From: a virus
IMG/VR virus record: IMGVR_UViG_3300028549_003662
Coordinates: 64,001 to 128,000 of that record
Length of the DNA: 64,000 nt
Strand: one strand, 5' to 3'
Part shown: positions 18,109-31,397 of the stretch, piece after piece
Layout of the letters: every line of letters starts with the position of its first letter
Numbering within the stretch: position 1 is the stretch's first letter
Program-made: the position numbers and the translations under genes
The notes under the pieces: generated by a model
What the model saw: the letters and a program-made list of their open reading frames with translations, nothing else
Told to the model about the DNA's origin: nothing
Databases searched by the model: none

Positions 18109-18554
18109 GTCCGCACCATATCCTTCAAGTTTATGGCGGCCGTCTGCTTCACACAGGGGAGGATGAGCTTGGCGAAGCTGCGGCCGGTCTTCGTGCACAC
18201 CTTCGCCGTCATCGTGGCGTGGTTGCCCTCCATGTCCTCGACACCGATCTCCAACTCCTGCAGCGCAGGGTAGAAGACGCAAGAAAGGAGGAACTCAGGC
18301 CGCGTGTGGCGGTCAGTGAGCGCCAGGGCGTCTTCGAGGTCGATTTGCGCGTTGGACAGCGCGTCCATGCGCGCCCTGGGGACGCCCATGCCGTGCCGGT
18401 GCCGCGCCGTGACCTGCGTGAGCCGCGGAAGGAAGCGGTCGACCGCGTTCTCCAAGCTCTCTACGCGGCAGAACGGGCAGGGCTCGGCAGAACTCAGCGG
18501 CGTCCACGCGCGCGAGCACCGCGTGCAAGTAGTGTTCTTGCGGGTGGCAGTCAT
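18105..18554 (-). CDS. Hypothetical protein with N-terminal Zn ribbon
   Basis: CTRC..W...EPCPFC, same module as 7881-8618. Confidence 0.7.
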   Translation of the reverse strand: MTATRKNTTCTRCSRAWTPLSSAEPCPFCRVESLENAVDRFLPRLTQVTARHRHGMGVPRARMDALSNAQIDLEDALALTDRHTRPEFLLSCVFYPALQELEIGVEDMEGNHATMTAKVCTKTGRSFAKLILPCVKQTAAINLKDMVRT

Positions 18555-18566
18555 TGTAGAGCGCCC

Positions 18567-18881
18567 TCACTGCTTGTCGCCGGTGTTGTAGACCCGGCCT
18601 TCAATGAGGGACAGGCGAAACTCAAGTTCCTTGACGGTCTCGGTGTTGGCAGCCGTGGCGTTGACGGCTGTGGTGAGCATCTGCACGGACTGCATGTTGT
18701 TCGCAGACATGTGCTCCACCATAATTATGGAGCGGTAGCTGACCCAGATGGACAAGATAAAGGCGACCATAAACAACATGCCCAGGATGGTGCTCCATGA
18801 AGCATTCAGCTCACGCTTTGCGGCCATAACTCCCTCTCTGAATTTGATTGCTCTTACAAGGTACTTGCGCACATCGCGCAC
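18567..18881 (-). CDS. Single-TM membrane protein with coiled coil
   Basis: TM ILGMLFMVAFILSIWV; start may be at MAAKR. Confidence 0.6.
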   Translation of the reverse strand: MRDVRKYLVRAIKFREGVMAAKRELNASWSTILGMLFMVAFILSIWVSYRSIIMVEHMSANNMQSVQMLTTAVNATAANTETVKELEFRLSLIEGRVYNTGDKQ

Positions 18882-18884
18882 ACA

Positions 18885-19238
18885 TCAGGTTCGCTTTACA
18901 ATCACGTACGAACCGTCTTCAATCTCTAAAATTCGCCGTATACATACGTCGGCTTTTGAGATGTCAACATGCACGTTACAGCAGAAGATGTCAACCGTCA
19001 GTCGCTCAAATTCTGGAAAAGAATGGATGGAAATGTGTGATTCGCTGATGATGGCGATGGAGGTGACACCAATGGGCGTGAATTTGTGGGAGAAGACCTT
19101 GATGATCTTGCTTCCGATGGCATCGGAAATACGTTCGACAAGATATTCGAGAGCGGCGACGTTGTCGAGGGCGCGCAAGCTGCGCTGCGAGGCCGTGCTG
19201 ATGCGGTAGCTGCCGAGGAGGTTGTTTCCGATGGTCAT
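18885..19238 (-). CDS. speD: S-adenosylmethionine decarboxylase proenzyme (class 1b)
   Basis: HKFTPIGVT...ISESHISIHSFPE...VDIFCC; ES autocleavage site. Confidence 0.9.
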   Translation of the reverse strand: MTIGNNLLGSYRISTASQRSLRALDNVAALEYLVERISDAIGSKIIKVFSHKFTPIGVTSIAIISESHISIHSFPEFERLTVDIFCCNVHVDISKADVCIRRILEIEDGSYVIVKRT

Positions 19239-19250
19239 GTTGTTTCCGTG

Positions 19251-19322
19251 CTGGCGGGCAATAGGGAGTTGGATTGGGAAGGGGCTGACTTCTTTGTTTC
19301 TGCCGCGCCCATTGCCCGCCAG
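19251..19322 (-). promoter_or_regulatory. Long hairpin in the speD leader
   Basis: Perfect inverted repeat CTGGCGGGCAAT (19251-62) / ATTGCCCGCCAG (19311-22). Confidence 0.55.
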
Positions 19323-19327
19323 GTCGT

Positions 19328-19462
19328 TTAACCGAAGGCAGCGATGCCCAGGGCGGGGGTGAGGACGCGGTCCTTGTGCTCCTGCTGCTTGCCCTGGTTC
19401 CAGGCCCCTACGGGGCGGTAGTACCCGGTGACGCGAGCATAGGTGCCGGTGGTGCGAATCAT
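19328..19462 (-). CDS. Stand-alone NrdD glycyl-radical peptide (44 aa, not in the ORF track)
   Basis: Hand translation MIRTTGTYARVTGYYRPVGAWNQGKQQEHKDRVLTPALGIAAFG; GAGGT RBS. Confidence 0.88.
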   Translation of the reverse strand: MIRTTGTYARVTGYYRPVGAWNQGKQQEHKDRVLTPALGIAAFG

Positions 19463-19497
19463 CTTTTTACCTCTGACCATGATTGTAATCCCCTCCT

Positions 19498-19941
19498 TTA
19501 GACGGTTTTGCCAGTGCTGCCGAGGCCGCCAGCACCACGAGCAGTTGCGGGAAGCTCATCGACCTCTTCGAAGACACCCTGGGCGACGGGGACGATCATC
19601 ATCTGAGCAACGCGTTCGCCGTGCTCGACGCGGCAGCCGTTGGGGCGGTCGGTCCACAAACCAAGGGTGATTTCGCCACGGAAATCATAGTCAATGACGC
19701 CGATCTGGTTGCTCAGCTTGAGGCCTTCGTTGATCCCCTTGCCGCTGCGCACGGCGATGATGCCGACGTAGCCTTCAGGTATGGCGACGGCGATGCCGGT
19801 GCTGACCTTGATGGGGGAGCCCGGCATGATGTTCTCGCAGCAGCGGGTGAGGATGGCCTGCAGGTCGAAGGCGGCGCTGCCATCGGTCTTGTAGGTGGGG
19901 ATGACGGCATCGGCGTGCATGAGCTTGATTTGGATGTTCAC
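19498..19941 (-). CDS. dut: Trimeric dUTPase
   Basis: GSAAFDL, RSG, GVIDYDFRGE, RVAQ, RGAGGLGSTG. Confidence 0.92.
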   Translation of the reverse strand: MNIQIKLMHADAVIPTYKTDGSAAFDLQAILTRCCENIMPGSPIKVSTGIAVAIPEGYVGIIAVRSGKGINEGLKLSNQIGVIDYDFRGEITLGLWTDRPNGCRVEHGERVAQMMIVPVAQGVFEEVDELPATARGAGGLGSTGKTV

Positions 19942-20516
19942 TATTTGTCTCCTTCAATGGGTTTGATGACGTTGAGCCGCCATCCGTCGATGGCGAACTT
20001 GTCCTTGAGGAAGTCGAGGGTTCCGAAGCGTTCCGCGCGCGCCCCCATGTAGTCAACGACGCGAAGCTCCTTGTAGGTGGCGCTCTTGCAGCCGAACAGC
20101 ATGATGTCGAGCAAGCGCTGCCGGTACTGGCCAAGATTGCGGACGCCGTCATTGGTGGTCTTCACAGACAGCACGACGCTGTCGAAGACATCGCGGAATC
20201 CATTCAGGCCGTTCGTGTGCAGCGCCATGCTACGCCCCTCGGCCATGAAGTGGTCAGTGGCGGCTTGGAACCCTACAAGGTTCGCTGTGGGCTCGCCCCC
20301 GGAGAAGACGACGGCCACGCGGTTGCCCATCATGGCGGCGTCGGTCTTCTTCAGGGCGGCACTCACATCCTCAAGGTCGTACACGGGGCGCCCACCCACG
20401 ACGCGCTGGTTGTAGCAGTACGGGCAACTCAGGTTGCAGCCGTTGAAGAACAACGTGGCGGCCAAGCGGTTCGGGTAATCGACAAACCCGAAAACGAAGT
20501 CGTGGATGAACTTCAC
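19941..20516 (-). CDS. nrdG: Anaerobic RNR activase (radical SAM)
   Basis: GCNLSCPYCYN, FSGGEPT, LHTNG; adjacent to nrdD. Confidence 0.9.
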   Translation of the reverse strand: MKFIHDFVFGFVDYPNRLAATLFFNGCNLSCPYCYNQRVVGGRPVYDLEDVSAALKKTDAAMMGNRVAVVFSGGEPTANLVGFQAATDHFMAEGRSMALHTNGLNGFRDVFDSVVLSVKTTNDGVRNLGQYRQRLLDIMLFGCKSATYKELRVVDYMGARAERFGTLDFLKDKFAIDGWRLNVIKPIEGDK

Positions 20517-20518
20517 GG

Positions 20519-22900
20519 CTAGCCCTCCACGTGGTCGGGGTAGCGGAGGCGGAACGCTTCCACCTGTTCGTCACTGTGCTCGAAGGGGCAGAACTCGTGC
20601 GTGCCGGGTATGATGCGGCCGCAGCACTCGCACTTCGTGTACACGGGGCTCACAGAGAAGTACGGGATGGGGGTGCTGCACATCGCCACCACCATCGCCT
20701 CCACTCCGACGCCGTCCAGTTCCTCACCGGTGTGGAGGTGCACAACGGTACCTCCGCTCAGGATGGGCTGCAGCACGGACTGCGTGCGCAGCAGAAGGTC
20801 CACCTGTCCCTGCAGCTCCACCGGGATGTGGCAGGAGTTGGTGAGATAGGGGGCATCAGAGGTTCCGCGATGCGGGGCCTGGGGGAACACCTTCAACATC
20901 TTGATGGCGAGCTTGTGGGCGGCGGACTCCGCAGGTGTGGCTTCGAGGTTGAAGAGCTTGCCCGTCTTCTCCGTCCACTCCTCAGTCGTGGTGCGCATGT
21001 GCTCCAGGATCTTCGCCGCCACAGCCAGGTTGGCCTCTTCAAGGAAGGAGTTGTCGTCGCCGCAGATGTACTCCACGGCCTCCCAGAGACCCACGAAGCC
21101 GACAGTGGTGAAGAAGGTGCTGAAGCCGCGCTTGAAGTTGGCCTTGGCCATGCTGAAGAAGCCGTCGTCGAAGGCCTTCTCCACGATTCCGCGCTTCCAA
21201 AGCTGCTCGTCGCGCACCAGACCCATGACGCGGTCAAGCTGCTGGTAGAAGTGCGCGAGCCGTTTCTCGGTGGTGTTGTGGTTCTCGAACACGCTGCTCA
21301 GCATGGCCAGCATGGGGAGGTTGAGCGTCACCACCTGCAGGGAGCCGGTCTGGTCGGCGTTGCCGAAGAGGCCGCCCACGTGCTTTCTTATATTCTTTTC
21401 CGATATTTGCAAACGACAGCACATACTCCTTACATCTGCGGGGTTTATCTTCTCCCCGGCGCTGTGGCCGTTGATGTAGTTCTGGAAGTAGGGGTTGCCG
21501 AACTTCGCGCTCAGCGAGAAGACGAGATCCTTGAGGGGGTGGCGGAAGAAGGCCTCGGTGACAGAGATGGTGAGGACGGGGAAGGTGAAGCCGGTCCCCT
21601 TGCTGTCGCCGCGCATGAAGTTCTTGAGGATGGCTTCGGCGACGATGTTCTGCCACATCTCGATATCGCCGTAGGTGAGGTACTCGCCCTTGCAGGAGCA
21701 TTCGAAGGTGTTGGCACCCCAGCGTTCTTCGAAGGTCTGGCCGCCGACGAGGGGGCGACGATCACGCATGTCTTCAGGAATTGTCAATGATAACGTGATA
21801 TTACTGAAGGGGCTGTTTCCGGTAACGAACATTTTGCGTGTGCTGCCGGGGACATTGCGACGCGCAATGAATGTTCCGGTGTTCGTCGTGGGACACCAAA
21901 CTTTCCCTTTGTAGTGCTTACGCCGAACTTCCGTAACGGCGAACTCCCCGATAACATTGGGCGTGTAACGGGTGTCCGGGCGCTTAATCTTCGGAATGTA
22001 ATATGCGCCTCCGGCGCTTTCCAACTCTGCAGCTTCACGCACATACAGTTTAGTCAGGCCAGAATCGGTGTACACGACACGATGCTTTTCGGTCACAACA
22101 GATTCGTAGCCCTCTCCTGAGAAATGCAAAAGGTCGCCATCGTGGTCGTAGATGTTCACATGCGTGAGCTTGTCTGACGTGACAGTTCTTGTTTCGAGGT
22201 CGACAACATATATGGAGTCGCCAACACTGAGCTCGTCGTAGCGCTTCCACCCCTTGTGCGTCAGGCACTCGGTTTTCTCATCGACGCACTGGCCGCCATA
22301 GCGGGTATTGTAATTGAGATGAAAAATCATCTCCTGCATGGATTGATCGACTTCTTCGAGAGTCATCTTCATGGCCATCTCAGGAGTCATATCGAAGGTA
22401 TTGATGCGGGAGAGGAAGAAATCCAGGGCGTAGGGGCCGAGGAAGAGGTCAACATCGTTGAAGGCCTGGGCACCGGCGAACTCGTTGCTGCAGGCTCCGA
22501 TGTGATTGATGATGTGGTTGACGGCGCTGCGCAGGCGCTTGGCGGGGCCGCTGATGATGTTCCCGGCCGATATGCCGTCATGGAGGAGATTCTCTAGGCT
22601 GTGGCCGCTGCAGTATGGGGTCTTCACGCCCAGGCCGAGATCGTGGATGTGCACGGCGCCGAGCTCATGCAGGTCAGCGAGACCATCATGTCCGGCCTTG
22701 CGCATCTCCGAGAGGTAGTTGCGCTTCAGCGCCTCTTCACCGATCACCAGCAGCAGTCCCGCCGGGGAGAGATGGCTCATGTTGGCGTTTTCCTTGGCCA
22801 GCAGACCCTCGCCGAGGTAGTTGGCGATAATGGGGTCGATGTCGAGAGTTGGGCCTTGGGGTGAGGCCGTGCCTGTGGCCGAGCTTTGAAGCTGGTCCAT
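20519..22900 (-). CDS. nrdD: Class III ribonucleoside-triphosphate reductase, intein-containing and lacking the glycyl-radical tail
   Basis: HIHDL, PYC, AGAQA, FTFP, RSMCCRL, TGS..VVTLNLP, EATPAES, SGG; ends at the CECC...CP Zn site. Confidence 0.92.
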   Translation of the reverse strand: MDQLQSSATGTASPQGPTLDIDPIIANYLGEGLLAKENANMSHLSPAGLLLVIGEEALKRNYLSEMRKAGHDGLADLHELGAVHIHDLGLGVKTPYCSGHSLENLLHDGISAGNIISGPAKRLRSAVNHIINHIGACSNEFAGAQAFNDVDLFLGPYALDFFLSRINTFDMTPEMAMKMTLEEVDQSMQEMIFHLNYNTRYGGQCVDEKTECLTHKGWKRYDELSVGDSIYVVDLETRTVTSDKLTHVNIYDHDGDLLHFSGEGYESVVTEKHRVVYTDSGLTKLYVREAAELESAGGAYYIPKIKRPDTRYTPNVIGEFAVTEVRRKHYKGKVWCPTTNTGTFIARRNVPGSTRKMFVTGNSPFSNITLSLTIPEDMRDRRPLVGGQTFEERWGANTFECSCKGEYLTYGDIEMWQNIVAEAILKNFMRGDSKGTGFTFPVLTISVTEAFFRHPLKDLVFSLSAKFGNPYFQNYINGHSAGEKINPADVRSMCCRLQISEKNIRKHVGGLFGNADQTGSLQVVTLNLPMLAMLSSVFENHNTTEKRLAHFYQQLDRVMGLVRDEQLWKRGIVEKAFDDGFFSMAKANFKRGFSTFFTTVGFVGLWEAVEYICGDDNSFLEEANLAVAAKILEHMRTTTEEWTEKTGKLFNLEATPAESAAHKLAIKMLKVFPQAPHRGTSDAPYLTNSCHIPVELQGQVDLLLRTQSVLQPILSGGTVVHLHTGEELDGVGVEAMVVAMCSTPIPYFSVSPVYTKCECCGRIIPGTHEFCPFEHSDEQVEAFRLRYPDHVEG
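21815..22288 (-). mobile_element. Mini-intein (158 aa) in NrdD
   Basis: GGQ|CVDEKTECLTHKGWK...VTEKHRV...KVWCPTT...FIARR...VTGN|SPF; no endonuclease domain. Confidence 0.88.
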
Positions 22901-22972
22901 GTCGTGATGCTCCTTGTTGGGTTTACTGGGATACTTCCTGCCGTTTCAAGGTGGAATGGCAGGCACCGCTCA

Positions 22973-23001
22973 CTTATGTCTGTCGAAGGGAAAGAAGTCA
23001 A
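22973..23001 (-). promoter_or_regulatory. Putative promoter of the nrdD operon
   Basis: TTGACT-17 bp-CATAAG in the intergenic gap. Confidence 0.4.
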
Positions 23002-23021
23002 GTACGAAAAACGCCGAATGT

Positions 23022-23399
23022 TTACGCCTTGTCGGAGGTATTCGGTCTTTTACCATCACGGCGCTGCTGCGCCACTTCGGCCTCCTTGATCTCGCCATCC
23101 GTGGCACCAAGGTTCTCGCGCGCCATCTTCTTATACAGAATGTGCAGCGTCACCGGGCCGCCGAAGCCAGCCATGCCGACAACAAACTCCTTGAAGTGCG
23201 GAGCCAGGGGGCTGACGTCCATGAGCTTTCCCGCCATCAGGCCAGCGAACCCGCTGACGAAGAAACAGGAGAGGAGGGCGTAAAAGCTAGGGCGCCGGCC
23301 GCTGACGAAGAGATTCGCCAACCCACCAGTAACGCCCCAGAGCAATACGTCCAGGGCGTTCGTCAGTTCCTTTAACGGATTTGTGGTAAAGTCGATCAT
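23022..23399 (-). CDS. Holin-like protein (LydA-like)
   Basis: GGLA...SGFAGLMAG...GMAGFGG small-residue TM pattern with a charged C-tail. Confidence 0.65.
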   Translation of the reverse strand: MIDFTTNPLKELTNALDVLLWGVTGGLANLFVSGRRPSFYALLSCFFVSGFAGLMAGKLMDVSPLAPHFKEFVVGMAGFGGPVTLHILYKKMARENLGATDGEIKEAEVAQQRRDGKRPNTSDKA

Positions 23400-24025
23400 C
23401 AGCGTGCCTTCGCTAGCAGGTACAACCATGTACCGATGTACGCGAACCATGTGAAATTGAACAACCTTACTTTGTTGTACCGCGTTCTGATGTAGATGAT
23501 CTCAAGCAGCGAAATCGCAACCGCTGTACCGAACAGTATCCGCAAAACCAGCATTCCATCAAGGTCAAAAAAGGGTATGACGTGGTCGTAAACTACGTAA
23601 TTGAACCCGATTCCCAAAGCCGCGGCGTACCCCGCCAGCACCAGCTTGGGCTGCGCGTCGATATTCTCCTTCGGGACGTCCATGTCACAGGTGATGCAGG
23701 AGCTCACCATGTGGGACATGTACAGCCAGAGCAGCACGACTGTGGCCATTGGGCTCCACATGAAATTGATGTACGCATCCACTGGGTTGGCGAGCTTGAA
23801 GCCGATCTGACTCGCCACGTGCAGGCGCACGACAGTGATGGGGATCTGCGAGGCTACGTAGCACACGCCGAGGAGCATCACGGTGTGTGAGGAGTGTCCC
23901 TTGTTGAGGCTGGGGCGAATCCCCAGGGCGAGGGTGGCGGCAACGAGGACAGCGACACCCAGGAGGTGCACCGTCAGGAGGTACTGGTAGGTGTACGCAC
24001 AGATCATAATGCCAGGAGGGCACAT
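23399..24025 (-). CDS. Multi-pass membrane protein
   Basis: About 6 hydrophobic helices. Confidence 0.65.
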   Translation of the reverse strand: MCPPGIMICAYTYQYLLTVHLLGVAVLVAATLALGIRPSLNKGHSSHTVMLLGVCYVASQIPITVVRLHVASQIGFKLANPVDAYINFMWSPMATVVLLWLYMSHMVSSCITCDMDVPKENIDAQPKLVLAGYAAALGIGFNYVVYDHVIPFFDLDGMLVLRILFGTAVAISLLEIIYIRTRYNKVRLFNFTWFAYIGTWLYLLAKAR

Positions 24026-24418: not shown

Positions 24419-25045
24419 TTAGGCTTCGACGGTGGAGGCGCGGACGATCCACCCATAGCAGAAGTCTTCCTGCGTGGGGTCGTCGCGCATGATCTTCTTG
24501 TAGTGCTGCACGGCCTCGGAGCGCATCAGCGCCATGATGACGGTCTGTCCGTCGCCGCGCCTCAACACCACATCGAGGGCGCGCGCGGTTGCGGGACCGG
24601 GGTGGCCGTCAACAACCAGATCCGGGAACATCTGGCCATTCTTGTTCATGAAGTTCAACTGCTCCTGCAGGAAGCGCCCGGCGGTCTGCGCGGTCCCGGT
24701 GTTCACCGCGTACTGGAAGAGGTAGTAGGCGATCTCGTAGGGGATGTTGTCGCCCCCGAAGCCGTCCCAATACGAGGTCTTGTAGAAGCCGCGCACAGCG
24801 GCCATGAACGCAGGATCTGCAGCCAGCGCTGCCGACATCGCCTTGCACTGCGCGGGGGTGGGGTTCTCGTTGGGTACGCCGAGACGTGCCTTGAGGGTGT
24901 CAACGACGGCCCAGCCCGGCCAGTCCGGGTAGAAGCGGCGGGAGATGCCGAAGGCGGTCTCCTTGCCGCGGTCAGTGGGCCTGTTGCCGTACGCGCCCTC
25001 GGCGCCCATCAGCTTCGCATACGCGCGCTCGTAGTTTGCAGCCAT
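24419..25045 (-). CDS. Endolysin, glycoside hydrolase family 108 plus peptidoglycan-binding domain
   Basis: EGAYGNRPTDRGKETAFGI, FYK..YW, AVNTG, LVVDG..GPAT, GW..R. Confidence 0.9.
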   Translation of the reverse strand: MAANYERAYAKLMGAEGAYGNRPTDRGKETAFGISRRFYPDWPGWAVVDTLKARLGVPNENPTPAQCKAMSAALAADPAFMAAVRGFYKTSYWDGFGGDNIPYEIAYYLFQYAVNTGTAQTAGRFLQEQLNFMNKNGQMFPDLVVDGHPGPATARALDVVLRRGDGQTVIMALMRSEAVQHYKKIMRDDPTQEDFCYGWIVRASTVEA

Positions 25046-29078: not shown

Positions 29079-31397
29079 CTATCCCTCGGTGAGGATGAGT
29101 TTGTAGTAACCGGATTTCACCCACGTGCCCGCCACATTGCGGTACATGTACGGCGAGACGCGCATGCTGAGCGAATTAGCGAGCTTGGGAGCGTAGCCGG
29201 AGACGGCTATGGTGCTCAACAACACACCGTAAGATTCCGTTTCGTAGTAGTAGAGCCCCGTGCACTCGTAGAGTGCGCCGCTGATTGCTTCGCTTGCGAC
29301 AATGCGCGGGTTGAACTTGGTACGCCCGAAGCCATGTGCGACATTGAAGTCGCCCGCTGCCGGAATAACGGCCGGAGCGCTTTCCCACAACCCAGGCATG
29401 CACTTGTCGTACGGCAGGATGTTGCTGCTCGCGTCGTTGCGGACCTGGCCAATCCAGCGCACGCCCGTTCCCAGCGTCGGGTGGAACCACGCGCGCGCTG
29501 CAGTGCAGTCATCGAAGCTCGCTACGAGGTTGCCGTAGCGGTCCATGAGCGGGGCCTGGGTGTCGAACATGAACGTCGGGGCGTTACCGGACTCCGGCCG
29601 CACCGCGTACATGTAGTAGATGGTGTTCGCGGCCTCGGTGAGCCCCGCACGCAGATTGCCAGAGAGCGTCACATTCTTAGCCTTCGTGACTTTCATGATG
29701 GCGCCATTGATCTCAATCTCGCCCGGCTGCACCTGCACGGTGTTGGCGTCGATGTACTTCGACCATACCGTGCAGATATTGGGGTTCGTGGTGGCGAGTT
29801 GCGACTTCACCTTCTTGTATATGCGGATGCGGCAGCTTACGGCGACACCGGCAGAGTGCACGTTAAGCGCCGTCACGGGACTCGTCGTGTTCGACCAAGA
29901 TGTTGTGAGAAGCGCGTTGTTTGCAGAGTTGCCGCCAACACAGATGCAGTTGCGTGGGGTGTTTGCTACTTTGAGGAATATGTCGGATACCGCAGACCTG
30001 CGCCCACCGACATAACCGATGTACAGACCAGGACGCGCGGAGCCAGACGAAGCCGCTACGGCTGAGCCCGTTCCTGTAAGCGACTGGTTCGGGTAATTCG
30101 CGGTCGCCTTATCTCCGTTGAGCGCGATATACACAGGCGTCGCGGCGTCAGAAAGCCCTTCGAACAGCACATGCGCGGTATCATCGAGTTCACCATCCCA
30201 GGGCAGCGTAACGTCGAGGACTTCGTTGTTGAGGTTCCACTCCTTGACGAGCTCTTCGCTCACGACCTCAACAGGCCGCACACCATCCACCCACTTGTAG
30301 ACCCTGATGGTTCCTGTGAAGGTATACGCTGTGGGGTTGACAACAACGGTATCCATGTTCGCGGTTCCGAGGTAGACGAAACCATCACTGCTGACGATCT
30401 GCCCGGCTGCTCCGGTGTGTCTGGCAGCGCCGCGCCACGTCCCTACCTTGGTGCGTTTGTTGAATTCCAAAACGTAGCTGCCTTGCGCGTATGCGGGCAC
30501 GAGGCGGAATCCGTTCAAATTAGTCAATCCCGCGCCAGCGGTGCTGGCCTGTCCGTAGAAGACCTGGTTGGCGTAGTTGGCAGCGGTGTCACTACTGAAT
30601 GTGGCGTTGAGGTGGCCGGTAATGCCCGCTCCGGGGTAGTCGACCTCGATGCGAAACTTCTCACAGTTGCTGACGTCAATGTTCTTGCCCGACAGCGACG
30701 CTGCATTGCTGCTGAATTCCGTGGTGAGCACCCAGCCAGATTGTGCAGTGGGGTCGATGAGGGCATTGAAGGCACTCACCCACGCGCCATCGTGGTACTG
30801 CATGGTCATGCCGGTGTCGACCACTACAGCCATGTCGCCCTCTTCCATTCCCGTGACCGCGTAGAGCTCAGCCATCGTGGCGTACTTGGTGATACCGCCA
30901 CCACCGCTGCCGCTGGTGAACTCCACCCAGGCCGTGTTGGTGTAGCGGTAGAGCTTGTCGGTATCGAGGACAGTGGCGAAGTCGCCGTCCGTCATCCCTG
31001 TGGCGGCCTGCAGGTCCGCCAAGGTGGCGAACTTCGGAATGCCCCCACCGGTAGAGGTGATCGCCACCCACTCCGCTGCAGTGGCGTCCCAGGAGTAGAG
31101 CTTGCGCGTCTCCAGGACGTGCACGACGAGACCGTCGTAGCGCTCGTCTGCCGCAATGGCATCGCGCTCCGTGATATCAGTGGCGATGCGAATGCCCGAC
31201 ACCTCCACCCAGGAGTCACCGTCCCAGGAGTACGTCTTGCGGGGCTGCGCCAGCACCTGCACGAGAAGGCCGTTGTAGCGCTCTCCTGCAGGAATGGCGT
31301 TGCGTGCGGCGATGTCAGCTACCACACGAACTGTTTTGCCGGTTCGCTCTTGGTAGAGGCCCTCGGCGAGTGCTTTAGTCCTTGGATCGTATGTCAT
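29079..31397 (-). CDS. Tail fibre protein
   Basis: Four N-terminal repeats (ARNAIP..ERY.GL.V.V / FAT.ADL.A.TGM..GD.A.V.DT), duplicated beta domains, C-terminal module. Confidence 0.75.
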   Translation of the reverse strand: MTYDPRTKALAEGLYQERTGKTVRVVADIAARNAIPAGERYNGLLVQVLAQPRKTYSWDGDSWVEVSGIRIATDITERDAIAADERYDGLVVHVLETRKLYSWDATAAEWVAITSTGGGIPKFATLADLQAATGMTDGDFATVLDTDKLYRYTNTAWVEFTSGSGGGGITKYATMAELYAVTGMEEGDMAVVVDTGMTMQYHDGAWVSAFNALIDPTAQSGWVLTTEFSSNAASLSGKNIDVSNCEKFRIEVDYPGAGITGHLNATFSSDTAANYANQVFYGQASTAGAGLTNLNGFRLVPAYAQGSYVLEFNKRTKVGTWRGAARHTGAAGQIVSSDGFVYLGTANMDTVVVNPTAYTFTGTIRVYKWVDGVRPVEVVSEELVKEWNLNNEVLDVTLPWDGELDDTAHVLFEGLSDAATPVYIALNGDKATANYPNQSLTGTGSAVAASSGSARPGLYIGYVGGRRSAVSDIFLKVANTPRNCICVGGNSANNALLTTSWSNTTSPVTALNVHSAGVAVSCRIRIYKKVKSQLATTNPNICTVWSKYIDANTVQVQPGEIEINGAIMKVTKAKNVTLSGNLRAGLTEAANTIYYMYAVRPESGNAPTFMFDTQAPLMDRYGNLVASFDDCTAARAWFHPTLGTGVRWIGQVRNDASSNILPYDKCMPGLWESAPAVIPAAGDFNVAHGFGRTKFNPRIVASEAISGALYECTGLYYYETESYGVLLSTIAVSGYAPKLANSLSMRVSPYMYRNVAGTWVKSGYYKLILTEG

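Follow-up and report, generated by a model that had tools for sequence, protein, structure and literature searches.

Class III ribonucleotide reductases (RNRs) and the other glycyl-radical enzymes are the textbook one-chain radical enzymes, and oxygen destroys them irreversibly, the chain being cleaved at the radical glycine. The locus described here raises the question of whether such an enzyme may also be built from two chains, with the radical glycine encoded by a gene of its own. The window, that is, the whole stretch of 64,000 nucleotides (nt) that was analysed, comprises bases 64001–128000 of the 146-kb IMG/VR virus record IMGVR_UViG_3300028549_003662, judged 91% complete. It contains an nrdD gene whose product ends before the glycyl-radical motif (hereafter the body) and, farther down the same row of genes, a very small gene whose product holds this motif (the tail). 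The reading that we consider probable is that of a two-subunit class III RNR, with its radical glycine located on a separately translated protein of 50 amino acids (aa).

Two complementary pieces of NrdD

Five closely packed genes lie on the minus strand of the window between 22900 and 18885. The first four of them, together with the sites discussed below, are as follows:

20519–22900, minus strand: nrdD body, encoding the precursor (793 aa) of the catalytic subunit of a class III RNR; neither an ATP-cone nor a glycyl-radical motif is present
21416–21421, minus strand: codons of the finger-loop pair Cys494-Cys495 (MCCRL), aligned to SCCRL of Thermotoga maritima NrdD
20576–20632, minus strand: zinc-site codons C757-x2-C760 ... 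C771-x3-H775, all in the body, with the ligands assigned from sequence
19941–20516, minus strand: nrdG, 191 aa, radical S-adenosylmethionine (SAM) activase with a CxxxCxxC cluster motif and a GTG start
19498–19941, minus strand: dut, 147-aa dUTP diphosphatase with a GTG start (NF001862, E 6e-38, above the cut-off)
19491–19497, minus strand: strong Shine-Dalgarno sequence AGGAGGG of the tail gene; it follows the dut stop codon directly and precedes the ATG by 9 nt
19328–19480, minus strand: tail gene (putative glycyl-radical subunit), 50 aa

The body matches the Pfam NRDD profile (PF13597) over positions 1–158 and 156–534 of 562 (E 3e-110), with nothing past position 534, and TIGR02487 with an E value of 6e-101 (338.7 bits against a cut-off of 326). 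No R..GY motif is present in its 793 residues, and its C-terminal end lies about 18 residues past the zinc site; the claim of an earlier note on this DNA that NrdD stops after the zinc site, without an RxxGY, was therefore borne out. The tail product matches NRDD positions 534–560 of 562 (E 1.9e-8, above the Pfam cut-off), a segment that holds RVTGYY, and positions 553–579 of 581 in TIGR02487. As the profile coverage of the body runs to NRDD position 534 and that of the tail from 534 to 560, the two pieces are exactly complementary. A six-frame search of the whole record with NRDD returned exactly three matching stretches, two from the body and one from the tail; only one copy of the tail exists in the 146-kb record, and no match to PF01228, the Gly_radical family of the pyruvate formate-lyase (PFL) type, was found in it at E values up to 0.1.

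The arrangement of the genes is that of an operon. The nrdD stop codon and the GTG of nrdG are 2 nt apart, the GTG of dut and the stop codon of nrdG overlap by 1 nt, and the tail gene starts 17 nt past the dut stop codon. The distance of 1.04 kb between the nrdD body and the tail gene is occupied by nrdG and dut, both identified by profile matches (for the nrdG protein, Pfam Radical_SAM with E 3.9e-12 and also Fer4_12), in agreement with the earlier placement of these two genes between the pieces. No terminator-like site was found in 18500–23400; the two promoter-like sites in the same interval are both located downstream of the tail gene, with none between nrdD and the tail. A megablast search of the region against GenBank phages gave no match at all.

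The catalytic body

An AlphaFold2 (AF2) model of the body, built from an alignment of 31 relatives, is confident in the exteins and of low confidence in the intein described below, and it contains a predicted C-terminal helix at residues 777–786. The top Foldseek matches of this model are all class III RNRs (8P2S, 4COJ, 4U3E, 9D3X and 1H78, with E values from 1e-17 to 1e-24), and the homologous 10-stranded alpha/beta-barrel core of this class is present in the body; the radical motif that belongs on the same polypeptide is absent from the body alone and is found when body and tail are taken as a pair. Residues C494, C495 and R496 are invariant in the alignment of the 31 relatives, and the finger-loop pair Cys494-Cys495 is presumably the site of the thiyl radical to be generated by the glycyl radical. 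In the zinc site, C757, G761, C771 and P772 are invariant in the same relatives and position 760 is C or H, the overall pattern being C-x2-[CH]-G ... C-P-x-x-H or, in some relatives, C-P-x-C.

Residues 776–793 (20522–20575, minus strand) form a C-terminal extension, H-T-x-E-Q ... P-x-L-V, which is common to the tail-less bodies of the clade described below; such an extension past the zinc site is not present in one-piece NrdDs. With its predicted helix at 777–786, it may be a candidate docking element for the free tail. A phmmer search of the last 99 residues of the body against PDB sequences yielded only chance-level matches. No large subunit of a class I or class II RNR was found in the 91%-complete record and, judged on this record, the split class III enzyme is the only RNR of the phage.

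The tail gene and its product

The motif of the tail gene product is ARVTGYYRPVGAWNQGKQQEHKDR, and the presumed radical glycine is Gly19, encoded by the codon at 19424–19426. Five public small proteins of 44–50 aa are 70–98% identical to the tail; in four of the five, an upstream start with a conserved MVKGxK is present, and the inner Met is absent from three. Because the homologues keep the upstream start and AGGAGGG precedes the ATG at 19480, the tail gene is assigned to 19328–19480, with 50 codons. Thus, the micro-ORF (open reading frame) that the earlier note had proposed, with the missing C-terminal motif of NrdD and a ribosome-binding site, stood, and its proposed length of 44 aa and limits of 19328–19462 had to be replaced. 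The result is a small free-standing protein with a radical motif, encoded by a 50-aa ORF with its own ribosome-binding site and conserved in relatives.

A comparison of 30 free tails shows no variation at R16, G19, Y20, P23, N28, G30, K31, E34 and R38. The profile of these 30 tails, the present one included, aligns to residues 612–645 of 651 in T. maritima NrdD, including RIVGY, and the alignment of the body to the same protein runs to approximately residue 596. In Prevotella copri NrdD, the glycyl-radical domain consists of the zinc site, a buried glycine loop and a surface tail (PMC11226230). The cut accordingly lies, by these alignments, inside the glycyl-radical domain, the zinc site remaining with the body and the loop and surface tail constituting the small protein. 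The profile was needed for this placement, as a phmmer search of the tail alone against PDB sequences gave chance-level matches only. A tblastn search of the tail against GenBank phages found just two ends of one-piece NrdDs; PHROGs holds no family for the tail of the window, and the matches of other free tails there are confined to phrog_4132 (unknown function) and the C-terminal end of the NrdD family. The ratio of nonsynonymous to synonymous substitution (dN/dS) of the tail was 0.35 against contig L017 and 0.67 against L182, values of limited use, given 50 codons and synonymous sites saturated in three of the six pairs, among them every comparison with L177.

Spread and age of the split

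The relatives of the body were taken as the best 120 proteins found with its C-terminal two-thirds. The 52 closest of these (34–77% identity) are all without the motif, and all end in the C-P-x-x-H-T-x-E-Q extension; in a FastTree tree of 121 proteins, the body of the window falls inside a clade that has 100% local support and consists of 45 tail-less bodies. The gene order also recurs. Phage contig L177 (136 kb, body approximately 48% identical) has the identical order of body, nrdG, dut and tail, L178, L179 and L182 have the order body, nrdG and tail, and the short contig L017 has dut, tail and speD; purine-rich sites precede the tail starts in L017, L177 and L182.

A set of 80 phage NrdD loci comprises 60 that encode NrdD in one piece and 20 with a tail-less body. 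A free tail was found in the same record for 19 of the 20 tail-less bodies, within 8 kb on either side in 16 cases and elsewhere in the remaining three, and the sole tail-less phage body without a free tail comes from a 15%-complete fragment; the co-occurrence of truncated nrdD and micro-ORF, which the earlier note had proposed to survey, is thus nearly complete among these loci. In some records, the tail is located tens of kilobases from the tail-less nrdD, as in G013 (the record of L251, 173 kb) at 30565–30669 and in G010 (the record of L202) at 1590–1721, and linkage of the two genes is therefore not required. Gene callers would not connect body and tail genes so distant from one another.

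The split is not confined to phages. In the cellular genomes found by the tail search, approximately one quarter of the loci show the split, for the most part with the tail between body and nrdG, and these loci include Bipolaricaulota, Thermotogae, Anaerolineae, DPANN archaea and a Pseudomonadales metagenome-assembled genome. A search of 1.84 billion cluster representatives with the free-tail profile returned 5,415 clusters at E ≤1e-3 and 3,537 at E ≤1e-10; among the best 150 of the 5,415 clusters, 149 have a size of 42–166 aa and 142 begin with Met. A Cys occurs within eight residues before the motif arginine in 129 of these 150 best free tails, mostly at position −5 (CEVYSR). The tails of the window clade have TYARV at this place, without a Cys, and the body has all four zinc ligands; the lack of a Cys in the tail of the window is explained by the complete zinc site of the body, and the missing −5 Cys in the tails of the clade suggests co-adaptation with their own bodies. 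In split forms with an incomplete site in the body, this Cys may serve the tail as a ligand of zinc or in redox chemistry. In three small proteins, P0126, P0127 and P0128, the radical motif occurs as two tandem copies, owing to a duplication of 20–30 residues within the protein, which is either an assembly artefact or real.

Judged from the sequences compared, the split is native, old and widespread, and it is shared with cellular lineages. The deep tail-less clade, the conserved tail with its invariant motif and the recurrence of the gene order in L177 all support the view, already expressed in the earlier note, that this is a natively two-part enzyme and not a frameshift or sequencing artefact.

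A putative mini-intein in the body

The body is itself interrupted by an insert:

21815–22288, minus strand: putative mini-intein of 158 residues (aa 205–362), with C205, a TEKH block and GN362; S363 is the first C-extein residue

The hallmarks of an intein are present, namely a nucleophile at position 1, a TxxH block, a terminal Asn, Ser at +1 and precise absence from intein-free alleles. The relatives P0007 and P0011 are precisely without the insert, GGQ being followed there directly by APFSNI, which fits the mention of a spliced NrdD in the earlier note. In P0014 (1284 aa), the same insert is found at the same NrdD site together with a LAGLIDADG homing-endonuclease domain, and homologous inserts occur at this site in L039, L157 and L164. 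The mini-intein of the window and the endonuclease form in P0014 look like one intein at different stages of degeneration, and by these features we infer that the mini-intein is spliced. The insert also affected the search for loci: with the body alone, only intein look-alikes in other genes were obtained, and the alignment of the relatives was needed instead.

A two-subunit reductase and its proposed mechanism

The two-subunit reading draws on what was observed: the pieces are exactly complementary, conserved and found together, they are encoded in one operon, and nothing that would join them was found. According to this reading, the operon of nrdD body, nrdG, dut and tail would encode two polypeptides of the reductase together with their activase. 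The 793-aa precursor would splice out its mini-intein, resulting in a 635-aa alpha/beta-barrel subunit with the finger-loop Cys pair and the zinc site, and without a radical glycine. The 50-aa protein would contribute the part that is C-terminal in one-piece enzymes, namely the RVTGYY loop, which is buried, and a short tail on the surface, and it would dock non-covalently into the barrel, opposite Cys494/495. NrdG, with SAM and a reduced electron donor, would then abstract hydrogen from Gly19 of the small protein, and the glycyl radical would give rise to the thiyl radical, by which nucleotide reduction starts. Damage by oxygen would fall on a cheap part of 50 residues, and a fresh copy of this part could take over while the body is kept. 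The steps that we infer are the docking of the peptide, the formation of the radical on it and its exchange once damaged.

Several points weigh against this picture. The best NCBIfam match of the NrdG protein is NrdG2 (E 1.9e-18), with 66.5 bits against a cut-off of 131, so that the family assignment, below the curated score, is likely only. The insert of the body matches the Hint family PF01079 weakly (E 0.0035, 17.4 bits against a cut-off of 29.7), and the penultimate residue of the intein is Gly in place of the usual His. The fused/split label, which requires at least 4–6 changes over the 121-protein tree, denotes as split the absence of the motif from the predicted proteins and not a tail gene checked for each protein. 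Moreover, we know of no precedent for a stable radical on so small a subunit, and a peptide of 50 residues offers little surface for staying bound.

Alternative explanations

The alternative that survives best is that the small protein acts, mainly or also, as a spare part for the NrdD of the host, as GrcA/YfiD and the phage T4 protein Y06I do for PFL, and is not, or not only, a dedicated subunit of the phage body. Such a role has a phage precedent in T4 for PFL (PMC8683613). Three phage records of 99–100% completeness, L011 (49 kb), L013 (37 kb) and L016 (52 kb), carry a free tail ORF of 43–62 aa (L011:6974–7105, L013:6962–7120 and L016:6304–6492) and have neither an NrdD body nor NrdG anywhere in the record; their tails can therefore work only with host proteins, and these tail-only phages make plausible, and best support, the suggestion of the earlier note that such peptides might also act on host NrdD. 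There are also many cellular genomes with tail-less bodies and free tails, and a host partner may exist. For the phage of the window, however, its own tail-less body needs a radical source and only one tail gene is available, this gene is located in one operon with the body and nrdG, and the co-adaptation suggested by the missing −5 Cys points to the body of the phage as the partner. We therefore regard the spare-part explanation as unlikely, though deserving serious attention; it is compatible with the two-subunit reading and does not exclude it.

A possibility that we put forward tentatively, and with somewhat more confidence than the spare-part explanation, is that the small protein is an exchangeable radical "fuse", which would be activated by NrdG off the enzyme, would fit any compatible tail-less or oxygen-cleaved NrdD body, whether of the phage or of the host, and would be swapped after oxygen damage. 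If this were true, it would be the first spare-part system for a ribonucleotide reductase, and the small tail-only phages would keep the synthesis of deoxyribonucleoside triphosphates (dNTPs) in their hosts going under oxygen stress.

That the locus is a decaying gene, with nrdG and dut brought by a rearrangement into the 3' part of nrdD, the enzyme dead and the small ORF a remnant, is very improbable. The gene order is indeed unlike the body, tail and nrdG typical of cellular split loci, and the body has an intein whose splicing is a prediction. Nevertheless, the frame of the body is intact over 793 codons with invariant catalytic residues, the tail is strongly conserved in its five close homologues and recognisable in L017, L177 and L182, with its motif invariant and a ribosome-binding site of its own, the split is common to a deep clade of 45 bodies, and no other RNR of the phage was found. 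The pseudogene reading was rejected on the conservation of body, tail and clade.

Finally, the joining of the two parts into one chain after transcription or translation (by a group I or II intron, trans-splicing, a split intein or ribosomal bypass) might be considered, given that group I introns, inteins and homing endonucleases frequently interrupt phage nrdD (PMC3653736, PMC12880540) and that the body already has one intein, but it is scarcely credible here: an Rfam scan of 18500–23500 for the splicing route named in the earlier note revealed no intron and nothing else even at E values up to 1, the 1.04 kb between the parts are two intact and conserved cellular-type genes, the segments past the zinc site of the body (approximately 18 residues) and ahead of the motif of the tail (approximately 13) are too short for split-intein halves, intein junction residues are present neither at the end of the body nor at the start of the tail, and in other phages the tail is located upstream of the body or tens of kilobases off. 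Intron and split-intein readings were rejected on the empty Rfam scan and on the segment lengths.

Whole-domain radical proteins

A second class of free radical proteins, of 90–170 aa, was observed in phages and Patescibacteria. In these proteins, the radical loop comes after a zinc ribbon of their own with four Cys (CHDCG ... KCxxC), and by their sequence features they would represent the whole glycyl-radical domain standing alone. The members are as follows:

L009, 851–1339: second-class radical protein
L010, 6749–7120: second-class radical protein
L014, 6758–7159: second-class radical protein
L015, 6764–7114: second-class radical protein
L068, L080, L093, L098, L104, L105 and L116: further members of the class

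No NrdD body was found in the records of L009, L010, L014 and L015, which are 33–86% complete.

Neighbouring genes

The last of the five packed genes follows the tail:

18885–19238, minus strand: S-adenosylmethionine decarboxylase-like gene, 117 aa (Pfam AdoMet_dc, E 2.4e-22)

It is located 89 nt downstream of the tail, and its position after dut and tail is the one kept in the related contig L017. A polyamine-synthesis gene beside a phage RNR operon is unusual. Directly upstream of nrdD lies a lysis cassette, in which a holin of the LydA type is accompanied by a GH108 endolysin that has a domain for peptidoglycan binding (23022–23450 and 24419–25045, both on the minus strand).

Significance

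A separate radical loop of 50 residues would provide a minimal, synthesisable substrate for NrdG, and in a two-piece NrdD, the movement of the radical loop into and out of the barrel could be studied directly. The two-piece enzyme is also a candidate mechanism for repair or turnover in anaerobic dNTP synthesis. For annotation, it means that the label of a complete reductase has been given to thousands of tail-less NrdD genes, whose essential micro-ORF partner often goes uncalled. The tail-only phages, in turn, suggest a new kind of auxiliary metabolic gene.

Comparison with known systems

No description of a two-chain NrdD was found in the full-text literature searched, the scope of which leaves out most subscription journals, and in a family-wide RNR phylogeny, the radical domain of class III is placed at the C-terminus, with no mention of forms in which it stands apart. 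The caution of the earlier note as to novelty was justified insofar as free tails are very common in sequence data; in the searched literature, they are not described.

The closest systems are the one-piece NrdDs with their NrdG, such as those of T. maritima (4COI/4U3E), phage T4 (1H78) and P. copri (8P23). They share with the present enzyme the fold and the catalytic core, the zinc site that precedes the radical loop, the motif R-V-x-G-Y ... N-x-G-K-x-x-E ... R and the adjacent nrdG, and the finger-loop cysteine pair is the same as in NrdD of the T. maritima type. In the one-piece enzymes, however, the glycyl-radical domain, which is highly mobile, is the C-terminus of the same chain (PMC11226230), whereas here the loop and tail are the 50-aa product of a gene two genes away, and the body has gained a conserved, predicted C-terminal helix (777–786) that the fused NrdDs lack.

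Phage RNRs encoded by genes in pieces are known as well, among them nrdA of Aeromonas phage Aeh1, split by mobE, T4 nrdD with its group I intron and the fragmented nrdD of Jug phages (PMC3653736, PMC12880540). As in the present locus, separate pieces must work together there. Those splits result from mobile introns, inteins and homing endonucleases and fall at varied positions, whereas one functional boundary is used here, and nrdG and dut lie between the pieces in place of a self-splicing intron or mobile endonuclease, with no Rfam match.

With respect to function, the nearest parallel is provided by GrcA/YfiD of E. coli and Y06I of phage T4, the latter being the phage precedent; these are small free proteins that, like the tail, have only the segment with the radical glycine (PMC8683613). 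As they demonstrate, the radical that PFL needs can reside on a small free protein, PFL being the only enzyme for which such spare-part proteins are known; the possibility for other enzymes has been raised (PMC8683613), a 2026 review likewise limits them to formate lyases, and the existence of further spare parts has been asked about by reviewers (PMC8683613; PMC13450708). Both GrcA/YfiD and the tail are presumably activated by the activase of the enzyme and complement a large subunit without an intact radical site. GrcA is homologous to the C-terminus of PFL (Pfam Gly_radical, PF01228), whereas the tail matches NRDD (PF13597) only. Moreover, GrcA, with approximately 14 kDa, rescues a one-piece enzyme after cleavage by oxygen; here, the partner body is natively tail-less, so the peptide would be an obligatory subunit. 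Particular to this phage are a split enzyme that is its only RNR, a mini-intein in the body, a tail gene placed behind nrdG and dut, and a tail without Cys.

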